Assembly (NCBI GenBank): GCA_963729715.1
Contig: CAVSPA010000006.1
Coordinates: 352,001 to 416,000, forward strand
DNA: 64,000 nucleotides
DNA from: an uncultured delta proteobacterium
GTDB taxonomy: Bacteria; Desulfobacterota; Syntrophia; Syntrophales; UBA2185
Direction of reading: 5' to 3'
The notes beneath the pieces are model-generated. The model did no database searches. It worked only from the letters and a program-made list of their open reading frames with translations, and was not told where the DNA came from. Shown here one piece after another: positions 28,610 to 38,003 of the stretch (positions within the stretch are counted from its first letter, which is position 1; each line of letters begins with the position of its first letter). The position numbers and the translations under genes are program-made.

Positions 28610-29605
28610 ATGGACACACAGGCATGGAGTCCGGATAAACTGCTGAAGGTATCAGGGTCCTACTGGCAGTCTTTCACCCTTCACGCTGCAGTTAAACTTG
28701 GGCTATTTACTGTGTTAGGCAGCGAAGAACTTACAGCTGGGGATATTGCTCAGAGGTTAAATGCGAGGGAAAGAGGCGTTGTGATGCTGCTCAACGCCCT
28801 CGCGGCAATGAATCTTCTTGTTAAGAGAGGCGACAGATACTCCAACACACCATCCAGTACATTTTTTCTCTCCAAGAATTCCCCGGAATATATGGGCCAT
28901 ATAATCATGCATCATCACCATCTTGCTCTGTCATGGTCGAAGCTGGATGAGGCGGTAAGGACGGGTGGCCCCATGAGGGCAAGATCATCCGGGAGTGATG
29001 AAGAAGCTCGGGAAAGTTTTCTCATGGGCATGTTCAACATCGCCATGAATCTCGCTCCGCGGCTGGTCAATACAGTAGATATCTCTGGACGGCGCCGCCT
29101 GCTTGATCTTGGCGGCGGGCCCGGCACGTATGCAATCCACTTTTGCCTCAACAATCCCGGGCTCAAGGCGACCGTCTATGACCTTCCGGGAACCGCACCA
29201 TATGCCGTAAAAACAATAGAGAGGTTCGGTCTTACAGACCGCATTGATTTCGTGTCGGGCGACTACTTGAAAGAAGATATTCCTGGAAGCTATGATGTCG
29301 TCTGGCTTTCCCAAATTCTCCATTCGGAAGGCCCCGATGAGTGTCAGAAGATAATCGAGAGGGCGGCCTCCGTTCTCGAGCCTGGAGGCCTGTTGTTGAT
29401 CCATGAATTTATCCTGGGAAACTCCAAGGACACCCCCCTCCAACCCGCACTTTTTTCCCTTAATATGCTTCTCGGAACGGCAAACGGCAGATCCTACTCT
29501 GAAGGGGAAATAATGGAGATGCTTGCCCGGGCCGGGGCGAGGGAGATTAAGCGCATTCCCGCCCAATTTCCAAGTGAATCGGGGGTTATAGGCGGCGTGG
29601 TTTAA
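28610..29605 (+). CDS. SAM-dependent O-methyltransferase (type 2, with dimerisation domain)
   Basis: Winged-helix N-terminus; LDLGGGPG; SQILH; LEPGG.LLIHE. Confidence 0.85.
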   Translation: MDTQAWSPDKLLKVSGSYWQSFTLHAAVKLGLFTVLGSEELTAGDIAQRLNARERGVVMLLNALAAMNLLVKRGDRYSNTPSSTFFLSKNSPEYMGHIIMHHHHLALSWSKLDEAVRTGGPMRARSSGSDEEARESFLMGMFNIAMNLAPRLVNTVDISGRRRLLDLGGGPGTYAIHFCLNNPGLKATVYDLPGTAPYAVKTIERFGLTDRIDFVSGDYLKEDIPGSYDVVWLSQILHSEGPDECQKIIERAASVLEPGGLLLIHEFILGNSKDTPLQPALFSLNMLLGTANGRSYSEGEIMEMLARAGAREIKRIPAQFPSESGVIGGVV

Positions 29606-29650: not shown

Positions 29651-31741
29651 CTAATTCTTATTAACTGAGACAACTTTTACAGGACTCCGCTGCCGGATAA
29701 AATTCAAAATTTCTATAGCAACCTCCTTTGGCCTTTCAAATTGAATGGCATGGCCGCTCGCCAATGAGACCAGTCGGTTCTGATTTTGGCCGGAAAATAG
29801 ATGGCCAATGAACTGCGAAACCTTATTGTTGTCCACAATCCGATCATTTTCTGCCATTATAGCAAGCACTGGGAGGGTGTTCCGCAGTATTGCCAACCAT
29901 GAAAGCTCCTGAACCTCATCCATGATGCTTATCGTTTTTAATGTAATCATGGTTGTTTTAAGATCATCGTTGTCAATAAAGTCAAGCCATTCATCGATCA
30001 GTGTGAAATCGGTTGCTTCCATGGGAATTGGTATGCAGGCATGGTTTCGTTCGGGTTTCAGTTTGAATTCAGAAATCATATCCATAATGATTTTCTCTCC
30101 GATACTCAAAACTGACCTGAATCGCTCGTTCCAGAAGAAGCCAGGAGTTAGCAGGATAAGGCTGGAGAGCATATCTCCGAGTCTCGCTGCGGCAACAGAA
30201 GCGTATTGTGCACCCTGGCACCAGCCTGCAAGATGAACCCTCTTAAAGGACTTATTTAGGAATTCGACGTGCTTGATAACATCTTCAATGACAAGTTGAA
30301 CAGAGCCCAAGTCTCCGCGCTTGTCATTTAACCCGCAACCACGCCGGTCAGGTGCAGCAACTGTTATGTCCGGTGCTATAGAACGCAGTTGAATTGCCAG
30401 CGGCGCCTGCCAGCCAGAATGACTCATGCCCCCGTGTAAAATCAACACCACGTCTTCCCCTTCGGTTTTACCCCAAACGCGGTAATGTATTTTATATTTA
30501 TCAGACGTTTCAAGAAAATGAACTTTGGGTGCGCCGTCGTCAGTGACCATGGGCATACGGCACTGCATTCCAAATCCGATATTCCAGTTTTCAGCCGGTA
30601 TGACCTTAAGTCCCTGAACTGTTTTGAAGTAATACGGAAAGTGCAAATTCAGCAGACCATTGCGGCCGAATCTCAGCATCGGGTCCACCGGCTCCCTCTC
30701 TACCAGATAGTCGCCGAACGCCCCTTCATGAGCAATGAGACTTTCTCCGGCGGCAGATGCGGCTATAAGTGCAGCCCTTGTGAGTAACGATGTTTCGCCC
30801 ACATGGCATCCGATGATGATCGGCCAACCCAGTCTTTTCAGCTCTTCAATCAGCCCTAAAGCTCGTGTAAGACCGCCAACCCGCGATATCTTTATATTCG
30901 CTATGAATTTTCCAGGTAGATCTTTATAGAGAGATAAATCTTCCAAGGTACACAGGCTTTCATCCAAAATAACGGGCAACCCCGTAGCCGTGCTGACCTT
31001 GCTTATGTCACCGGCATTGCGTGATCCTACGGGTTCTTCTATAGCGAAGACCCGTCCATCCAGTGCCCTTATATACGCTATAGCCTCGTCACATTGATCC
31101 TTCCATAAATTATTTGCGTCAAGACGAATACGTATGTCGCTGCTGTTATGCTGAATAGATAAATCTTCAAGAATGGAAATCTTTTCAATATCGCGTTCGA
31201 GGTTATTGCCATTTAACTTAATTTTAAAATCAGAAAATCCTCGAATCAGGTATTTATCCGCCAGCGTGGTATATTTCCATTTTTTATCATCCCCCAGAAC
31301 GGCAGTGTAGCGACCACGGAGTTCAAAGCCATCGAGTCCAAGCAACCCCTCAACACTACAACCTCTCTCCCGGGAAAAAAGATCAAGCAGTGCCATTTCT
31401 ATTGCACACCATGCTGATGGGTACTTATCGATTGCCGTGCTGTTATTTTCGACCCACTGTTTCAGGTCTTCCAGTGTTTCGAAATTCACCTTCCCGGTTG
31501 AAAAATTTTCCTCTACCCATTTGACACTCGACTCGAGATCATCACCGGCCACATAGGTTCTCGGACAACCCTCACCGTATCCCTTGTTTCCATTTCTTTT
31601 TGCCTGGACCCAGACGCTTTCTCCTTCATTTCTGGTTGCCGCGGCGTGACGGATTGTTGTCTTAAATTTTACCCGCAATGCCCTCACTTGTATGTGAATT
31701 GTTTGCGTAGTCATACGCTTTTCTCCATTATCCATGGCCAT
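29651..31741 (-). CDS. Fusion of an enolase-superfamily (muconate-lactonising/epimerase subgroup) domain and an alpha/beta-hydrolase with a Cys nucleophile
   Basis: N-part GYGEG.PR, FKIKL, RLDAN, IEEP, LDES, NIKISRVGG, GCHVGET. C-part LHGG, DRRGCG, GWCQG, ENDRIVD, GHAIQFE. A better RBS (GGAG) precedes the ATG at 31714. Confidence 0.85.
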   Translation of the reverse strand: MAMDNGEKRMTTQTIHIQVRALRVKFKTTIRHAAATRNEGESVWVQAKRNGNKGYGEGCPRTYVAGDDLESSVKWVEENFSTGKVNFETLEDLKQWVENNSTAIDKYPSAWCAIEMALLDLFSRERGCSVEGLLGLDGFELRGRYTAVLGDDKKWKYTTLADKYLIRGFSDFKIKLNGNNLERDIEKISILEDLSIQHNSSDIRIRLDANNLWKDQCDEAIAYIRALDGRVFAIEEPVGSRNAGDISKVSTATGLPVILDESLCTLEDLSLYKDLPGKFIANIKISRVGGLTRALGLIEELKRLGWPIIIGCHVGETSLLTRAALIAASAAGESLIAHEGAFGDYLVEREPVDPMLRFGRNGLLNLHFPYYFKTVQGLKVIPAENWNIGFGMQCRMPMVTDDGAPKVHFLETSDKYKIHYRVWGKTEGEDVVLILHGGMSHSGWQAPLAIQLRSIAPDITVAAPDRRGCGLNDKRGDLGSVQLVIEDVIKHVEFLNKSFKRVHLAGWCQGAQYASVAAARLGDMLSSLILLTPGFFWNERFRSVLSIGEKIIMDMISEFKLKPERNHACIPIPMEATDFTLIDEWLDFIDNDDLKTTMITLKTISIMDEVQELSWLAILRNTLPVLAIMAENDRIVDNNKVSQFIGHLFSGQNQNRLVSLASGHAIQFERPKEVAIEILNFIRQRSPVKVVSVNKN

Positions 31742-31786
31742 TTTGAAACCTTTATCTGTATCTATGATGAGAATTCCGAGTGGTAA

Positions 31787-34627
31787 TCATATTTTTTTGT
31801 CCAACACTTCCCTTACTTTTTGCGAAAGGGTATTTACACTGTACGGTTTTTGAATGAAGCCATAGCAGCCCTCTTCCATCATCCTTGTTGAACGTGCGTC
31901 TGCGCTGTATCCGCTCGAAAGGATCACCTTGATGCCGGGATCGATGGACTTGAGAGCATTGAATGTTTCCCCCCCATCCATTTCCGGCATGATCATGTCC
32001 AGGATCACCATATCAATTTCACCTTGTTTTTCTTTGTATATATCTACGGCTTCGCGACCGCTCCTCGCTACAGAAACCTTGTACCCCAGCACCTCCAGGA
32101 TCTCGCTGCCCACATCAATGATCACGTCTTCGTCATCCACGAGAAGGATTGTCCCCTCACCCCTTGCTATGTCTGTTGAGACTTTCTCTTCCTTGACAAG
32201 CTCTTTCTCTGAAGCAGGAAGATAGATGGTAAACGTCGCCCCGTGGCCCTTTTCACTGTATACATCTATTATACCGTTGTGGCCTTTGACAATACCGTAG
32301 ACAGATGCAAGACCGAGACCCGTACCCCTTCCCATCTCTTTCGTCGTGAAAAAGGGCTCAAAGATTCTGTCCCGCGTCTGTTCATCCATCCCGATACCCG
32401 TATCGGTTACAGCGATCCGTACATACCTTCCGGGCTTCACACCATACGGTCTAGCGGACTCCTCGTCAAGAAAGACGTTAGCAGTTTCCAGATACAAATC
32501 GCCGCCGCCAGGCATGGCCTGCCAGGCATTGACATAAATATTCAAAAGCACCTGCTCTATCTGCCCGCGATCAACCTCCACCGCCCAGATATTGTCCTTG
32601 TGGTTACGGTGAATAGTAATTTCCTTCTTCGTTCTCCCGAACATGGCTGACGTCTTGTTGATAATTTCGTTCATATCGGTTACGGCGACTTCATATTTGC
32701 CGCCACGGGCAAAGCCCAATAGCTGCTTGGTCAGCTCGGCGCCGCTTCTCACCTGATCTTCAATTCCCTTTAATTTATCATAAAGAGGGTGAGTGATATT
32801 CATATCGAGAAACATTAGAGAGGCATACCCCTGTATGCCCGTGAGGAGATTGTTGAAGTCATGGGCGATGCCTCCGGCAAGAGTACCCACGGCTTCCATC
32901 TTCTGGGCATGGAGCAGCTGTGATTCAAGCTGTTTCTGTTCGGAGATATCCCTGAATATTCCCACGATACCTGTTACATTTCCCTTTAAATCAAGATTTG
33001 GGGCTCCACTTATATTAAATACCCTTTCGGACCCATCTTTGTGCAGAATCGTGCCGACCCTGTCCCTCAGAATAAGTTTTCCATCCCTTACCTGCTCAAA
33101 AAGGAGGAGGTATTCTCTGGCGTCCTTCTTTGCCATAAAATCGACAAAATTTCGTCCTATGACCTCATCGGTCCGATGTCCCAGAATTTTCTCCCAGACG
33201 GGATTTATATAAGTAAATGAACCATTAAAATCAAGAGTGTAAATAATATCAGGAGCATTCTCACTTAAGGAGCGGAACCGCTCTTCGCTTTCGAGTATTT
33301 TTTGATAGGATGTCGCATTATTTATGCTGATGGCTATGTGGGTCGCGATCCCCATGAGAAGGCTGACATCACTCTGCGTAAGATGCCTCTTTGATCTGAC
33401 GTTATCAACCATCAGGACGCCGAGAGACTCGTGTTCGAAAACAATGGGAACGCATATGAACGACTTGGCACCCATCATTCGGGCAAACTCATGACTCTTC
33501 TTCGAGAGGCTGTCTTCTATTTCGGAAATATCATCAATCAGGATAGGTTTCTGCAAACGAAAGGACTCCACTGTAGGTCCCCTCGAATTAGGCCTATTAA
33601 GGTGAAACGCCACACCTGTGAGAAATTCCTCATGCTCAGGGTTGTAGCCATAACCAATGGCATACACGAGACGGGTTCTATCCTGGTTGGCAAGCATGAT
33701 CATGCCCCGATCAAAATCAAGACGTTTCTCCATGGCTTCCATAACTAGCTTGAGCAGTTTTTCGCTATCCAAAATCATGGAGGTTGCCTGGCCGATCTCC
33801 TGAATGAGGAGGGCATTGTTATAACGGATGTTGATCTCACCTAACAGGTTATCGGCTAAATCACCCTGCTTTTTCAGGTTTATCGCAAGCTCCTTTTTTT
33901 CTACATACTCAGAGTAAAAAACAAAAATAAATACAAGCAATACATAGAGCAAAACGGGCACTGCCCAAGCCCACTCGGTATCGTGGAGAATAAAGAATAA
34001 GATCGGGCAGACCACAAAAGCCGAAAGTGCGACGTAATTGCGGACTGTCTTCCACGTAAAAGAAGGCACTTTCTCCCAGCTTATAATATAGCGGCAACTG
34101 CCTCCTCCTTTATGAATACAGGTCGGGTGTTCTACACTGGCGAATTTGGTTGTGAAAAGTTTGGCAATTGCCTCGAAGTTTGCGAGCCGATACTGACATT
34201 GAAAGGGTTTCTCTTCTACGCCGGGGTTTGGGGTGACGACAATTTCGACCTGGTTTCTTCCAAGACTTCTTACATGAATGGTTGAGGCGCGACTGAAAAA
34301 ATGATGCAGTTTACCAAGGACTGAGTAAGCGACGGAAGGCGTTATAAAACCCAATGCGTATTGCGATACGGCGCCACCAGCTTTTGAGAATGGAGCATTA
34401 CGGCCGACATTCTTGGGAATGTCGGGGTCTTTTGTTTGTTGGGTCATGCCTTCGTGAAAAAGATCTATTTGCCTCTGGCTGAACCAGTGCCCCCCATCTT
34501 CGAGCTGGTAGGTTGTAATTCCGGCATAATTGAGAAGCGTATCTATATTGACATCGGGATGATGCTCGTTAAGGTATTCAATGTAGTTCTTAATCAGTCT
34601 GCTGCTGTATAATCCGGCGTCATTCAT
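31787..34627 (-). CDS. Hybrid sensor histidine kinase: V4R-like, 2 TM, GAF, PAS, HisKA, HATPase, REC
   Basis: FQC...[18 protein letters not shown] hairpin; FICVPI GAF; APDIIY..INP PAS; AHDFNN H-box; N/G1/F/G2 boxes; ILLVDDE...LDMIMP...KP receiver. Confidence 0.9.
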
Positions 34628-34652
34628 TCTACGATTCTCAGGATAAATTGTA

Positions 34653-36743
34653 CTACTCGTATTTCATTCTAAAATGGCGCTGCACGTACTCCATAAATTT
34701 ATTGGAATGGCGCATATTCGTGATCCATAGTTGATACTTCTTTTCGCTCGGGATGTGCATAACATCAGAATAAACGGATGGATAAATTAAAAGAGGAATG
34801 CTGTCAAGGTGATAAACCCCCGTTAGTTGGCCAACAGCAAGAGAAAGAACTTCCCAAGGCAAATTCTCCGAGTCAACTACAATAGCGTTTATGCCATTTA
34901 AAAGCTCAGATAGATTTACTCCCACATCAGACTGATTAACAATCATAACGGCTCTCAGATAGTCCCCTTCTGTAAGTGAGTATACTTCCCATTTTCTTGT
35001 GAAACCGAGCCGTTGGGATACGTGCTCCAGTGAGTCCCCCGTAAGGTCATTTTTCCCTAAATTTAGCACATCGAACAATAACCCTCCGGAGGAATGTTTC
35101 AAAAATTGCTCGAGGTGCCATAATTCGGATTTGGTGCTTTCGTGTAATGACCAGCCCCGTGGCAGTTCTTTCTGGGGTATTCCGACAGGAAATGTCATAT
35201 AAGAAAAGAGGTCAAGCGAACAGATACGGGGATTATCCAACTTTCTCGCAAAGCCGCCGAAGACGCGATCGGGAAATTTGTTCTCCGGGCGGAAGAAGCA
35301 CATGACGTAGTCCATATTTGCGGAAGGAAGATGGTACATGCCGTACAAAAAAAGCATCATATGTTTTAGAATCTGAAAGCCCGGCAGTTTATTGTGCATT
35401 GGCCTCGCCGCGTGGTGATGTATCAACCAGGCGCGCTCATAGGCCCTGAGCATGGACATATGACCGTATATTCGCCCATTTTCCTCGTAGGTAAAATGCA
35501 TGGCGATTTCGGCATTTTCCTGATAGAGCTTTCTGTAGGTATTCTTAAAATCTTCCCGCCGGTCATGGAGTAGTTTATACTTCTTAGGGTATATGAAACC
35601 GGTATCGAAGAAGAATTCCCAGAGGGCATCCATATCGACTTCCGTGGATATGCAGGAATGATGATCCATATTTAAAGCAATGATCCTATTCAAACGGCTG
35701 TAGCTGTGGACGTCCATATCCAGGATGGCAATGCCGCAGCAGACTTTATTTTCCTCCTGCTTCTTGCGGTAGATTACCTGGGCCGTACAGTTCATTTTCA
35801 GCTCCCCGGCATAGATTATTGACAGCCCATGTATAATCATGCCCGGCAGCAATATGCCCTCTATGGCATCGTCATACACAGAAAAACCAGTAATGGAGAT
35901 GTCTGTGATTTCTCGCTGGACTTTTCTTCCAAAAAATGGATGTTCAAAGATGGCCATCGGAGGGGGGAATATCCGGTGGCGGGGATGGCGAATCGTTCTC
36001 GTCTGGAAGCGTTTGATCTGTTCACTCGGGGGGGCAACGACGATTTCCCAATCGTGAGTTTCATGCGTTTGTCTTAAACAGCGGCAGTTTCCCGAAAAAA
36101 GCATTTTACCGTCGCTCGTTAATCTGATGGTAACCGTGGCATCGGGATTGAATTCGTGATATGATGAGGGCATTTCAGGGCTTACTCTTATGCGGAAAGA
36201 CTGCGGGCTGAAATCTATAAGGCTGCCCCTGGCCAAAAAGCCGCTCTGCGTCAACTCCACAGTGACATCCCGGCAGGGAAAGCGATTTGTCACTCGCTTG
36301 CTTATAAGGTAGCTCTCGTCCGGCAGCTCTACCTTAAATCCTGCACTGTCTATACCGAGAAGTTTTGCAGGAATAAGGATGATGGACTGTTGATCCATTA
36401 CTATCAGGTAACTGAACTGGAAATTTTCCAGGCCGAAACTCATGTGACTCTTATCCCAGGAACAGGCTAATTCGTCTCCTTCGATAGCTTCCGGCATTGC
36501 ATTTACAAGAATAGCTTGGTCATACTTAGGATGGCGCAACAGGGCGCAGATAGGATCGCCCATAAAATGGATCCGGTTCAGAGTATTCATCAGATTCTCT
36601 TTTTTGATGTGGCTGCCGGCATCGATGGCGTTAATGAGATCATCGTGCTGAAAAAACCACAGGGGCAGGAATGGTTCCTCAGGAGCCTTTCTGACTTTCC
36701 CGATGTCAATGAGGATGGGTTGCCTGATTTTTTTGTCTTCCAT
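34653..36743 (-). CDS. Tandem PilZ-domain protein with a C-terminal GNAT-like region
   Basis: KRVTNR...DFSPQS and RHPRHR...DISITG PilZ-type motifs. The ~330-aa C-terminus (LWEFFFDTGFIYP, GRIYGHMSM, FRPENKFP) is GNAT-like by pattern only. Confidence 0.75.
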   Translation of the reverse strand: MEDKKIRQPILIDIGKVRKAPEEPFLPLWFFQHDDLINAIDAGSHIKKENLMNTLNRIHFMGDPICALLRHPKYDQAILVNAMPEAIEGDELACSWDKSHMSFGLENFQFSYLIVMDQQSIILIPAKLLGIDSAGFKVELPDESYLISKRVTNRFPCRDVTVELTQSGFLARGSLIDFSPQSFRIRVSPEMPSSYHEFNPDATVTIRLTSDGKMLFSGNCRCLRQTHETHDWEIVVAPPSEQIKRFQTRTIRHPRHRIFPPPMAIFEHPFFGRKVQREITDISITGFSVYDDAIEGILLPGMIIHGLSIIYAGELKMNCTAQVIYRKKQEENKVCCGIAILDMDVHSYSRLNRIIALNMDHHSCISTEVDMDALWEFFFDTGFIYPKKYKLLHDRREDFKNTYRKLYQENAEIAMHFTYEENGRIYGHMSMLRAYERAWLIHHHAARPMHNKLPGFQILKHMMLFLYGMYHLPSANMDYVMCFFRPENKFPDRVFGGFARKLDNPRICSLDLFSYMTFPVGIPQKELPRGWSLHESTKSELWHLEQFLKHSSGGLLFDVLNLGKNDLTGDSLEHVSQRLGFTRKWEVYSLTEGDYLRAVMIVNQSDVGVNLSELLNGINAIVVDSENLPWEVLSLAVGQLTGVYHLDSIPLLIYPSVYSDVMHIPSEKKYQLWITNMRHSNKFMEYVQRHFRMKYE

Positions 36744-37145: not shown

Positions 37146-38003
37146 TCATTCGGCGGATGGCTTCCGATTTAGTTGCGGCGGTCTCTTAATCTCAATATAA
37201 CCTCCCAGACCGACGGCTTTGAATATCTCCTCGATGGTTGCGCCCATCGTATGCACTATCATTCCCTCCGGATCAGGCATGGGTGATAATAATACCAGCT
37301 TGTTATCAAACCTTCTGAAGCTCAGGTCTACGATGCTGTAGGCTACAATGACGACGCCGGATAGAGAAATAAGCTCCCTCTCAAGCGTGAGGCACGTGGT
37401 GGAAATTACATCCTTCAGGAATTCCGGCAAACCAAATTTCTCCATAAATTTCATGCCGAGCTGTGATTGATGCTGAGAGATAAAATCATCGTCTATCGCC
37501 GCTTGCTCATACTCATCTTTATACAGCGACTTGTAGAGGGCGATGATGATCTTACCGATTTCGAGGAGAAGGCCCCCTATCTCTACTCTTCTTGTGTCGT
37601 CGTCCCTCAGGCCGAACTCTTTCGCGAGAATCCTGCCCCCGATTATGGAAGTTGCAAAACTTTTTGCGCAAATAATTCTCACTTCCTTGTCCTTTGACAG
37701 GGCTGCAAACGACAAGAATATTATGAGAACACGGGCAAAGTCCATGCCCAGCCGGGAAACAACCTTGTAGAATGTATCGACAGTTCCTCTTTTCAGATGC
37801 CCGTAATAGGCGGAGTTGGCTATGCTGAAAAGTCTTACCAGGATTTCGTCTCCCACTTTTGACTTCAAAAGCTCAATCTCACTCTCGTCCGCGTCGGGAT
37901 CGCTGAGCACGGCAAGCACGTCCGGATTAAAACCGACGTTGACATTGTTGAGAATCTTATCTTCAATATCTAAAATTATCTGATTAACTGTTTCGGCGTC
38001 CAT
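37146..38003 (-). CDS. HDOD-domain protein
   Basis: L.RL.SIANSAYY, V..LG, GLLLEIGK (LHD degenerate), HQSQLG...KFGLP; AGGAGG RBS. Confidence 0.82.
   Translation of the reverse strand: MDAETVNQIILDIEDKILNNVNVGFNPDVLAVLSDPDADESEIELLKSKVGDEILVRLFSIANSAYYGHLKRGTVDTFYKVVSRLGMDFARVLIIFLSFAALSKDKEVRIICAKSFATSIIGGRILAKEFGLRDDDTRRVEIGGLLLEIGKIIIALYKSLYKDEYEQAAIDDDFISQHQSQLGMKFMEKFGLPEFLKDVISTTCLTLERELISLSGVVIVAYSIVDLSFRRFDNKLVLLSPMPDPEGMIVHTMGATIEEIFKAVGLGGYIEIKRPPQLNRKPSAE

Follow-up and report, generated by a model that had tools for sequence, protein, structure and literature searches.

Three co-oriented genes on the minus strand, at positions 29651-36743 of a 64-kb window of contig CAVSPA010000006.1 (the window being the whole stretch of DNA analysed), encode a PilZ-GNAT protein (gene 1), a hybrid histidine kinase (gene 2) and a fusion of an MLE-subgroup enzyme with an alpha/beta-hydrolase (gene 3). 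The locus raises the question whether these proteins act together and, if so, what connects them. Based on sequence comparisons and structural models, about an even chance is given to the answer that they form a cassette in which an acylated carboxylic acid, probably resembling an N-acyl amino acid, is made, modified or destroyed, and sensed. Each of the three genes is present in one copy in this genome, and close homologues carry the label Syntrophales.

Conservation of the gene pair and its partners

If the genes act together, they should be found together in other genomes, a test that an earlier note on this DNA had suggested. The search covered 251 genomes sampled evenly from the phylum; these genomes are related to each other and many are fragmented. 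Gene 1 was detected in 29 of them, and the sensor family represented by gene 2 is present in 27 of these with a narrow profile and in 28 with a broad one. In 20 of the 29 genomes, gene 1 and a sensor gene lie within 10 kb on one contig, as read by hand. Metagenome matches were analysed for the best 80 of 573 gene-1 loci and the best 80 of 405 gene-3 loci. A sensor gene was found in 43 of the 48 gene-1 loci with at least 4 kb of downstream sequence. The three-gene unit of the earlier note was upheld in part: genes 1 and 2 constitute a conserved core, but gene 3 is not a member of it, since the third slot is most often filled by an S-adenosylmethionine (SAM) methyltransferase and the same fusion occurs in only two of the 80 gene-1 loci.

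Though outside the core, gene 3 is, judged from its neighbourhoods, a dedicated partner. All 25 gene-3 loci with at least 3 kb on both sides contain gene 1 or the sensor gene, so that the proposed tie between the MLE-hydrolase and the pair was borne out and chance adjacency could be rejected. Among all 80 gene-3 loci, 59 contain gene 1 or the sensor gene, and the remaining 21 have less than 3 kb on at least one side. Gene 3 and the core are arranged in five gene orders. Within the taxonomic order, gene 3 has matches in nine of 151 genomes, two of which are hydrolase-only and located elsewhere. Six other genomes of the order contain the MLE part of gene 3; in five it lies beside genes 1 and 2, and the contig of the sixth breaks off 2.7 kb upstream. 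At several loci (L125, L135, L137, L141, L151, L173), the cassette abuts FabG-like genes and further genes that we take to be lipid-pathway-like.

The content of the third slot is variable. A dedicated SAM methyltransferase is encoded in 28 of the 80 gene-1 loci and an MLE in 11, while no locus contains both. Apart from the two fusions, the MLEs (nine) represent a sister type with about 25% identity. Genes for B12 radical SAM, PP-loop and metallo-hydrolase proteins were likewise found repeatedly in gene-1 loci. In the 251 genomes, the methyltransferase is found in 21 of the 29 with gene 1, and gene 1 in 21 of the 23 with the methyltransferase. A FastTree phylogeny requires at least nine changes between MLE and methyltransferase; of its 135 rows, the 90 labelled ones were counted, and the other 45, which have short flanks or neither gene, were left out. 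In the genus of the window, gene 1 is present in nine of 11 genomes, and five slot contents were observed in the eight informative ones, which are largely a repeat of records L001-L010. The slot amidotransferase is WbuX-like (192 bits, cut-off 203), and the slot of L090 contains an M20 deacylase-like gene. Because enolase-type enzymes, WbuX-like amidotransferases and M20 deacylases act on carboxylic acids, and methyltransferases can do so, we infer a product with a free carboxylate.

Three recurring neighbours belong to no family: a protein of 509-568 amino acids (aa) encoded between gene 1 and the sensor gene (L057:6832-8538), one of 143-182 aa (L008:17882-18346) and a PP-loop-like protein of 276 aa (L002:15207-16037). 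In the window, the GC content at third codon positions is 0.465 in gene 3, compared with 0.539 in gene 1 and 0.522 in gene 2, which agrees weakly with a later arrival of gene 3 in the slot.

When the sister MLE was traced through the same 251 genomes, a sister cassette was reached (L190-L203, L205, L219 and L220; e.g. L190:7822-14350). It contains no gene 1, but a distant form of the sensor, an LpxL-type acyltransferase and an MLE of the HVGET type, frequently joined by FadL and a B12 radical SAM gene. The acyltransferase was assigned to PF03279 in all eight cases tested. It is encoded in 23 of the 251 genomes, about half of which seeded the profiles; all 23 contain the sensor family, and by hand the enzyme was seen to adjoin the sister MLE in 22 and the sensor in 20. 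Three Cys residues and W48 are invariant in the distant sensor form (13/13), and FadL-type channels are encoded in eight of 20 sister-cassette stretches. Both cassettes occur together in three genomes, and one of the two is present in 49 of the 251, about a fifth. Two further sister MLEs lie beside GH3 acyl-amido synthetase-like genes (L204:6377-9268, L206:9323-13310), and no sensor was found in the stretches fetched around them. That unrelated acyl-transfer enzymes appear in the same role argues that an acylated small molecule, and not protein contact, links the parts; this is the strongest argument for such a link.

Predicted properties of the three proteins

The features of the locus are collected in Table 1. 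The intergenic gaps of 25 and 45 nucleotides (nt) given in the earlier note were reproduced from the open reading frames. Gene 3 probably starts at Met10, where a GGAG ribosome site is found and homologues begin, which would extend the gap to gene 2 to 72 nt. A scan for promoters gave no more than chance would (16, against 15.9 expected).

Table 1. Coordinates of genes and domains in the window
Feature	Position	Strand	Description
Gene 1, core, 696 aa	34653..36743	-	YcgR-N-like barrel, two PilZ barrels, tandem GNAT
First PilZ, ~aa 149-245	36009..36299	-	RxxxR and DxS canonical; c-di-GMP binding predicted
Second PilZ, aa 248-360	35664..36002	-	R252/R255 spacing non-canonical; D/N-x-S-x-x-G intact
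Tandem GNAT, aa 361-696	34656..35663	-	fold match; conserved residues in first repeat
Gene 2, core, 946 aa	31787..34627	-	H-NOX/V4R-like, two transmembrane (TM) helices, GAF, PAS, HisKA, HATPase, receiver
Input domain, aa 1-190	34058..34627	-	H-NOX/V4R fold, predicted zinc site C144/H167/C170/C178
Two hydrophobic helices, aa 199-237	33917..34033	-	hydropathy peaks 1.98 and 2.53; model
Gene 3, swappable slot, 696 aa (probably 687)	29651..31741	-	MLE-subgroup enolase and Cys-nucleophile alpha/beta-hydrolase
MLE-subgroup domain	30542..31711	-	catalytic lysines, metal ligands, GCHVGET motif; no DxD
Hydrolase domain	29684..30514	-	GWCQG elbow, Cys-Asp-His triad
HDOD-domain gene	37146..38003	-	PF08668; 402 nt upstream of gene 1; local add-on, outside core

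Gene 1 probably specifies an acyltransferase regulated by cyclic di-GMP (c-di-GMP), as judged from conserved motifs and an AlphaFold model (predicted local distance difference test score 83.4, 90 sequences) with the domains listed in Table 1. Homologues are numerous, 1814 at E<=0.001 among 4957 candidates. The PilZ assignment of the earlier note is supported by Pfam, which detects one such domain (PF07238, above cut-off, E 1e-8), and by the barrel fold (Z 13.5-15.1). PilZ domains bind c-di-GMP through two signature motifs, RxxxR and D/NxSxxG. In the first PilZ of gene 1, R150 and R154 are present in 90 of 90 sequences, D177 in 88 and S179 in 74, followed by G/A182. Only the D/NxSxxG motif is canonical in the second, with S283 and G286 invariant; it aligns to 4xrn (Z 15.1, root mean square deviation (rmsd) 2.0, 105 residues aligned).

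A GNAT domain had also been proposed for the C-terminus, and by fold a tandem GNAT is present: Foldseek returned tandem GNATs with E 1e-8, and VIA-align gave Z 12.3-12.7 over about 260 residues. The best tandem match is a histidine acetyltransferase with N-myristoyl-His (9emp; Z 12.7, rmsd 4.9, 261 aligned), the Z value of which is close to that of other GNATs. Conservation is focused on the first repeat (FFxxGFIYPxKY, W439, H443, G455 and N488...F495-G-x-F498); H443 and G455 are invariant and N488 is found in 86 of 90 sequences. Of the GNAT-fold synthases named in the earlier note, gene 1 belongs by sequence to neither the LuxI nor the FeeM family. None of 44 members matches the LuxI or FeeM Pfam at E<=0.1, NCBIfam gave no match, and a single weak PF00583 match was obtained among the 44. 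As no sequence family claims the domain, it is not filed as LuxI or FeeM. By fold, LuxI-type RpaI (6wn0) reaches Z 10.0, tied with many single GNATs, and FeeM is not in the top 50 rows of either fold list, which excludes nothing. A search for shorter GNAT homologues yielded mostly fragments on short contigs, and the Atlas contains stand-alone GNAT clusters of about 350 aa without a family. When gene 1 (aa 36-696) was modelled together with the input domain of the sensor, the predicted complex was uninformative (score 0.01, mark 0.32), and it counts neither for nor against binding. Distant gene-1 relatives of about 950 aa (L101:5167-14688, L102:3336-12075, L103) have extra PilZ-like segments and keep the GNAT motifs; they lie with the methyltransferase, a radical SAM gene and a two-kinase sensor without GAF.

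By its domains, gene 2 encodes a hybrid histidine kinase with HisKA, HATPase_c and receiver, and H-box His589 and the receiver Asp are present. Its input was expected to be V4R-like, and the model has indeed an H-NOX/V4R fold, aligning to the Shewanella oneidensis H-NOX 4u99 with Z 16.6 (rmsd 2.9, 177 aligned), to 6mx5 with Z 15.8 and to the VirS ligand domain with Z 14.8. Foldseek searches with the sensor model were dominated by GAF matches. Of 50 family members, 29 match Pfam V4R (PF02830) with E<=0.05, the best at E 1.7e-6; one score is 25.2 bits, below the threshold of 31. Over the zinc motif, an alignment of the family profile to the Shewanella H-NOX was obtained (E 0.002), with C144/H167/C170/C178 matching C139/H161/C164/C172; C144 and C170 are present in 50 of 50 members and C178 in 45. 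A conserved haem His was not found, His occurring in at most 15 of 50 members at any column from 105 to 111, and the positions matching the H-NOX signature YxSxR (136/138/140) are occupied by G, a variable residue and K. The HNOB Pfam has no match in the 50 members. In H-NOX proteins the proximal haem His is absolutely conserved (PMC7108781; here and below, papers are cited from their accessible parts). Since this residue is not conserved and the fold is that of H-NOX and VirS, the input domain is read from alignment and model as a haem-less H-NOX/V4R pocket. Gene 2 itself has H108-H109, and this protein may bind haem.

The helices at aa 199-237 form a probable membrane hairpin, and hydropathy and the model indicate a membrane-anchored sensor with no extracellular domain. 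The prediction that the same sensor would occur on different outputs held: the 57 sensors in the 80 gene-1 loci comprise 26 kinases, 12 cyclases, nine HD-GYP-type proteins and ten truncated or other forms. The whole sensor family amounts to 3182 clusters at 50% identity. In seven same-genus loci, the input domain (aa 5-187) is the most variable part of the core, with a mean identity of 70% compared with 80-84% for PilZ, GNAT, GAF and PAS. At L020:14727-17084, sensor input, GAF and PAS are fused to a segment resembling a major facilitator superfamily transporter instead of an output domain, a candidate fusion or assembly join. In one same-genus genome (L214:6710-9526), the sensor gene and its neighbours read as several fragments, probably due to sequencing error.

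Both domains of the fusion claimed for gene 3, MLE and alpha/beta-hydrolase, were found. In the MLE domain, K175, K284, the metal ligands D208/E235/D260 and R/K287 are each present in 120 of 120 sequences. The hydrolase triad is formed by C508 (116/120), D633 (120/120) and H664 (119/120); this half scores 65.6 with Hydrolase_4 and 18.9 bits with dienelactone hydrolase PF01738, under the cut-off of 21 (E 0.001), and is present in 58 of 80 gene-3 homologues, some of which are cut by contig ends. The name cycloisomerase finds no support: among solved structures, dipeptide epimerases (3jva, E 6e-24) and a related member of the subgroup match best, ahead of cycloisomerases (E 1e-12 for chloromuconate cycloisomerase), and both catalytic Lys residues and the basic residue at Lys+3 are kept. 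No family cut-off is reached, neither for muconate cycloisomerase (TIGR02534, 54.5 bits versus 335) nor for dipeptide epimerase (NF041118, 62.7 versus 500), N-succinylamino-acid racemase (NSAR; TIGR01928, 80.7 versus 200.65) or DgcA (77.5 versus 400). Strand 8 reads HEGAFGD and has no DxD, the amino-group motif of dipeptide epimerases. Lys at strands 2 and 6 together with three acidic metal ligands define the enolase superfamily's MLE subgroup (PMC2948282 / bioRxiv 10.1101/2022.03.03.481873), in which gene 3 is placed by its invariant Lys and metal-binding residues. According to the same sources, R/K at Lys+3, seen here as R/K287 in a two-base site as in NSAR, is necessary but not sufficient for racemase activity, and N-acyl amino acid racemases arose earlier from this neighbourhood of the subgroup. 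By these sequence features, a racemase fits the MLE domain better than a cycloisomerase.

Other genes of the window were rejected as members of the core. The HDOD gene is found in five of the 80 gene-1 loci, all close relatives, and an upstream crotonase is confined to close relatives and three other loci. A convergent O-methyltransferase gene (~28610-29605) was rejected both as a core member and as the cassette methyltransferase. A profile search did not find the latter in this genome: the best score is 39 bits, whereas typical members exceed 400 and the most distant reach 142-174. In a single distant genome, which has no cassette methyltransferase, a look-alike of this O-methyltransferase lies two genes from gene 1 (L100:13260-14330).

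Proposed mechanism and competing explanations

In the proposed scheme, gene 1 would transfer an acyl group to a small acceptor, yielding an acylated acid whose carboxylate is free and which is most likely of the N-acyl-amino-acid type, and c-di-GMP bound to the first PilZ would tune this reaction. The product or a modified form of it would bind the sensor pocket and set the output of the kinase; in relatives with a cyclase or c-di-GMP phosphodiesterase output, a feedback loop would be closed. The enzyme in the third slot would alter the carboxylic acid. In this locus the MLE domain would most likely racemise the alpha-carbon and the hydrolase remove the acyl group, which makes turnover somewhat more likely than maturation, while in relatives this role would fall to a methyltransferase or a PP-loop amidotransferase. 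Both the role of the product as a diffusible signal and the gating of the enzyme by c-di-GMP are inferences.

A wider proposal is possible but doubtful. It describes a class of cell-to-cell signalling systems in anaerobic sulfate reducers and syntrophs, in which one family of haem-less H-NOX/V4R receptors would read acylated-acid signals from interchangeable, unrelated acyltransferases, either PilZ-gated tandem GNAT or LpxL-type. The synthase would receive input from c-di-GMP, and rapid exchange of the slot enzyme would create dialects by stereo-inversion, methylation or amidation.

Should the reading of the cassettes itself hold, syntrophic and sulfate-reducing bacteria would have a candidate signal system, and a class of ligands could be named for the haem-less H-NOX/V4R sensors, a large family of orphans. 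PilZ-GNAT proteins such as PixB would then have a lead to their substrate, and an unassigned enolase-superfamily branch a function.

Several observations weigh against an acylated signal made and sensed by the cassette. A FadL profile has no match in this genome, and FadL is encoded in only five of 180 gene-1/gene-3 loci; export and re-uptake are therefore not supported. Thirteen of 61 sensor-bearing genomes have neither acyltransferase. If the slot alters the ligand, the sensor pocket should change along with it. Pocket differences lean toward slot content in pooled pairs, but not significantly in 28 independent pairs left after removal of four near-duplicates (p 0.12 counting radical SAM genes, 0.5 ignoring them), and one methyltransferase/MLE pair retains 93% pocket identity; this null result is as compatible with destruction of the signal by the slot enzyme as with its alteration. 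For gene 1, identities in the GNAT fold matches are 7-13%, and the C-terminus has no useful match by sequence in Pfam, NCBIfam, PDB or plasmids. Acyl-CoA-binding motifs A and B typify GNAT enzymes; a motif B-like N488...F495-G-G-F498 is conserved here, but motif A is reduced to G455 and non-canonical. In addition, some of the loci counted are duplicates or near-duplicates, and part of the loci counted later had served as seeds for profiles A5, A6 and A8.

The same parts could serve a purpose inside the cell. Envelope lipids or glycans might be tailored under a built-in monitor, such that a membrane aminolipid or acylated sugar is made, decorated by the slot enzymes and read in the same cell, with no signal between cells. 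This is considered unlikely, even though the replacement enzyme is a member of the lipid A/lysophospholipid acyltransferases, a WbuX-like protein is among the slot enzymes, genes for B12 radical SAM proteins and patatins are found repeatedly, and both the membrane-anchored sensor lacking an extracellular domain and the absence of a FadL match in this genome would suit it. However, gene 1 has no membrane segment, the FadL-type import channels of the sister cassette point to a molecule from outside, and a racemase-type enzyme and a hydrolase would better suit a small soluble substrate. Distinctly unlikely is protein acylation as conceivable for PixB, in which c-di-GMP-gated gene 1 would acylate the sensor or a motility target and the sensor would read redox through its zinc-cysteine site. 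In its favour, no sensor residues are better conserved than the three Cys (13/13), protein acetyltransferases are among the tandem GNAT matches, PixB is itself a c-di-GMP-binding PilZ-PilZ-GNAT protein with unknown substrate (PMC8316039), and in Vibrio, H-NOX without haem detects oxidation by way of this Cys site (PMC7108781). Protein acylation would leave unexplained why small-molecule proteins (MLE, hydrolase, methyltransferase, amidotransferase and FadL) track the pair, and why gene 1 can be replaced by an enzyme of the LpxL type. In addition, zinc sites in V4R domains are usually structural.

Two further explanations start from gene 3, and both are held to be improbable. The NSAR route acylates, racemises and deacylates amino acids, and GNAT, MLE-subgroup racemase and deacylase make up the same trio of enzymes; an inducible salvage or detoxification of D- to L-amino acids, with the sensor detecting incoming substrate, would also accord with the best NCBIfam matches of gene 3, which are NSAR/OSBS-type and N-acetyl-D-Glu racemase, all below cut-off. 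The frequent methyltransferase, never found at one locus with an MLE, argues against salvage, as do the many gene-3 homologues in which the hydrolase half is not seen, and PilZ gating and c-di-GMP outputs would be unusual for it. Alternatively, gene 3 might be a true cycloisomerase/lactone-hydrolase pair by which an unsaturated acid is cyclised to a lactone signal and reopened. Such a function is suggested by the Cys nucleophile elbow, as in dienelactone hydrolase, by the Glu that ends strand 8 in 98 of 120 sequences and by the best NCBIfam match of the sister MLE, muconate cycloisomerase (130 bits versus a cut-off of 335). But epimerases are the closest solved relatives, the strand-8 Glu is replaced by Gln in 22 of 120, and catechol/muconate pathway genes do not recur in gene-1 or gene-3 loci.

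Comparison with known systems

N-acyl amino acid products are also obtained from FeeM. Stieleriacines (PMC7293339) and N-acyl alanine methyl esters (PMC11580390) are acylated, sometimes methylated amino acids with proposed signalling roles; the genes for the latter are reported as unknown (PMC11580390), and the accessible parts of the two papers name no cognate receptor. No sequence link of gene 1 to these compounds or to FeeM was found. The literature searched, mostly without subscription journals and with supplements outside the search, contains no description of the cassettes; a comparable gene neighbourhood may be shown in the supplement to the PixB article.

Individual parts have relatives in well-studied proteins. 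The sensor shares its fold and its Cys/His zinc ligands with the zinc-binding H-NOX of Shewanella oneidensis and Vibrio cholerae (PMC7108781), but its proximal haem His is not conserved, and it is fused in cis to TM, GAF and output domains instead of acting in trans on HnoK. Gene 3 shares two catalytic Lys, three metal ligands and a basic Lys+3 residue with NSAR/dipeptide epimerase families (BC0371, AmyNSAR), the NSAR neighbourhood likewise comprising an acyltransferase and a deacylase (PMC2948282, bioRxiv 10.1101/2022.03.03.481873). Unlike these enzymes, it belongs to a distinct GCHVGET subfamily below every family cut-off, is fused to a Cys hydrolase and is found in a signalling context.

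For gene 1, the nearest studied architecture is PixB (MXAN_2604) of Myxococcus xanthus, which also has two PilZ domains and a GNAT, and in which binding of c-di-GMP was proposed to boost the transferase (PMC8316039). Compared by architecture only, gene 1 differs in an extra YcgR-N-like barrel, in the tandem GNAT and in its tie to a sensor and modifying enzymes. The logic proposed for the whole is shared with the diffusible signal factor (DSF)/Rpf system of Xanthomonas (RpfF, RpfC/RpfG, RpfB), in which a fatty signal is made, sensed by a hybrid kinase, coupled to c-di-GMP breakdown and turned over (PMC9040794). In the cassette, however, the synthase would be of the GNAT or LpxL type and not a crotonase, the signal would be read by an H-NOX/V4R pocket, an MLE/hydrolase or a methyltransferase would take the place of an acyl-CoA ligase, and c-di-GMP would also feed the synthase. 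By analogy, the cassette may thus work like DSF/Rpf with different parts, one of which resembles PixB.

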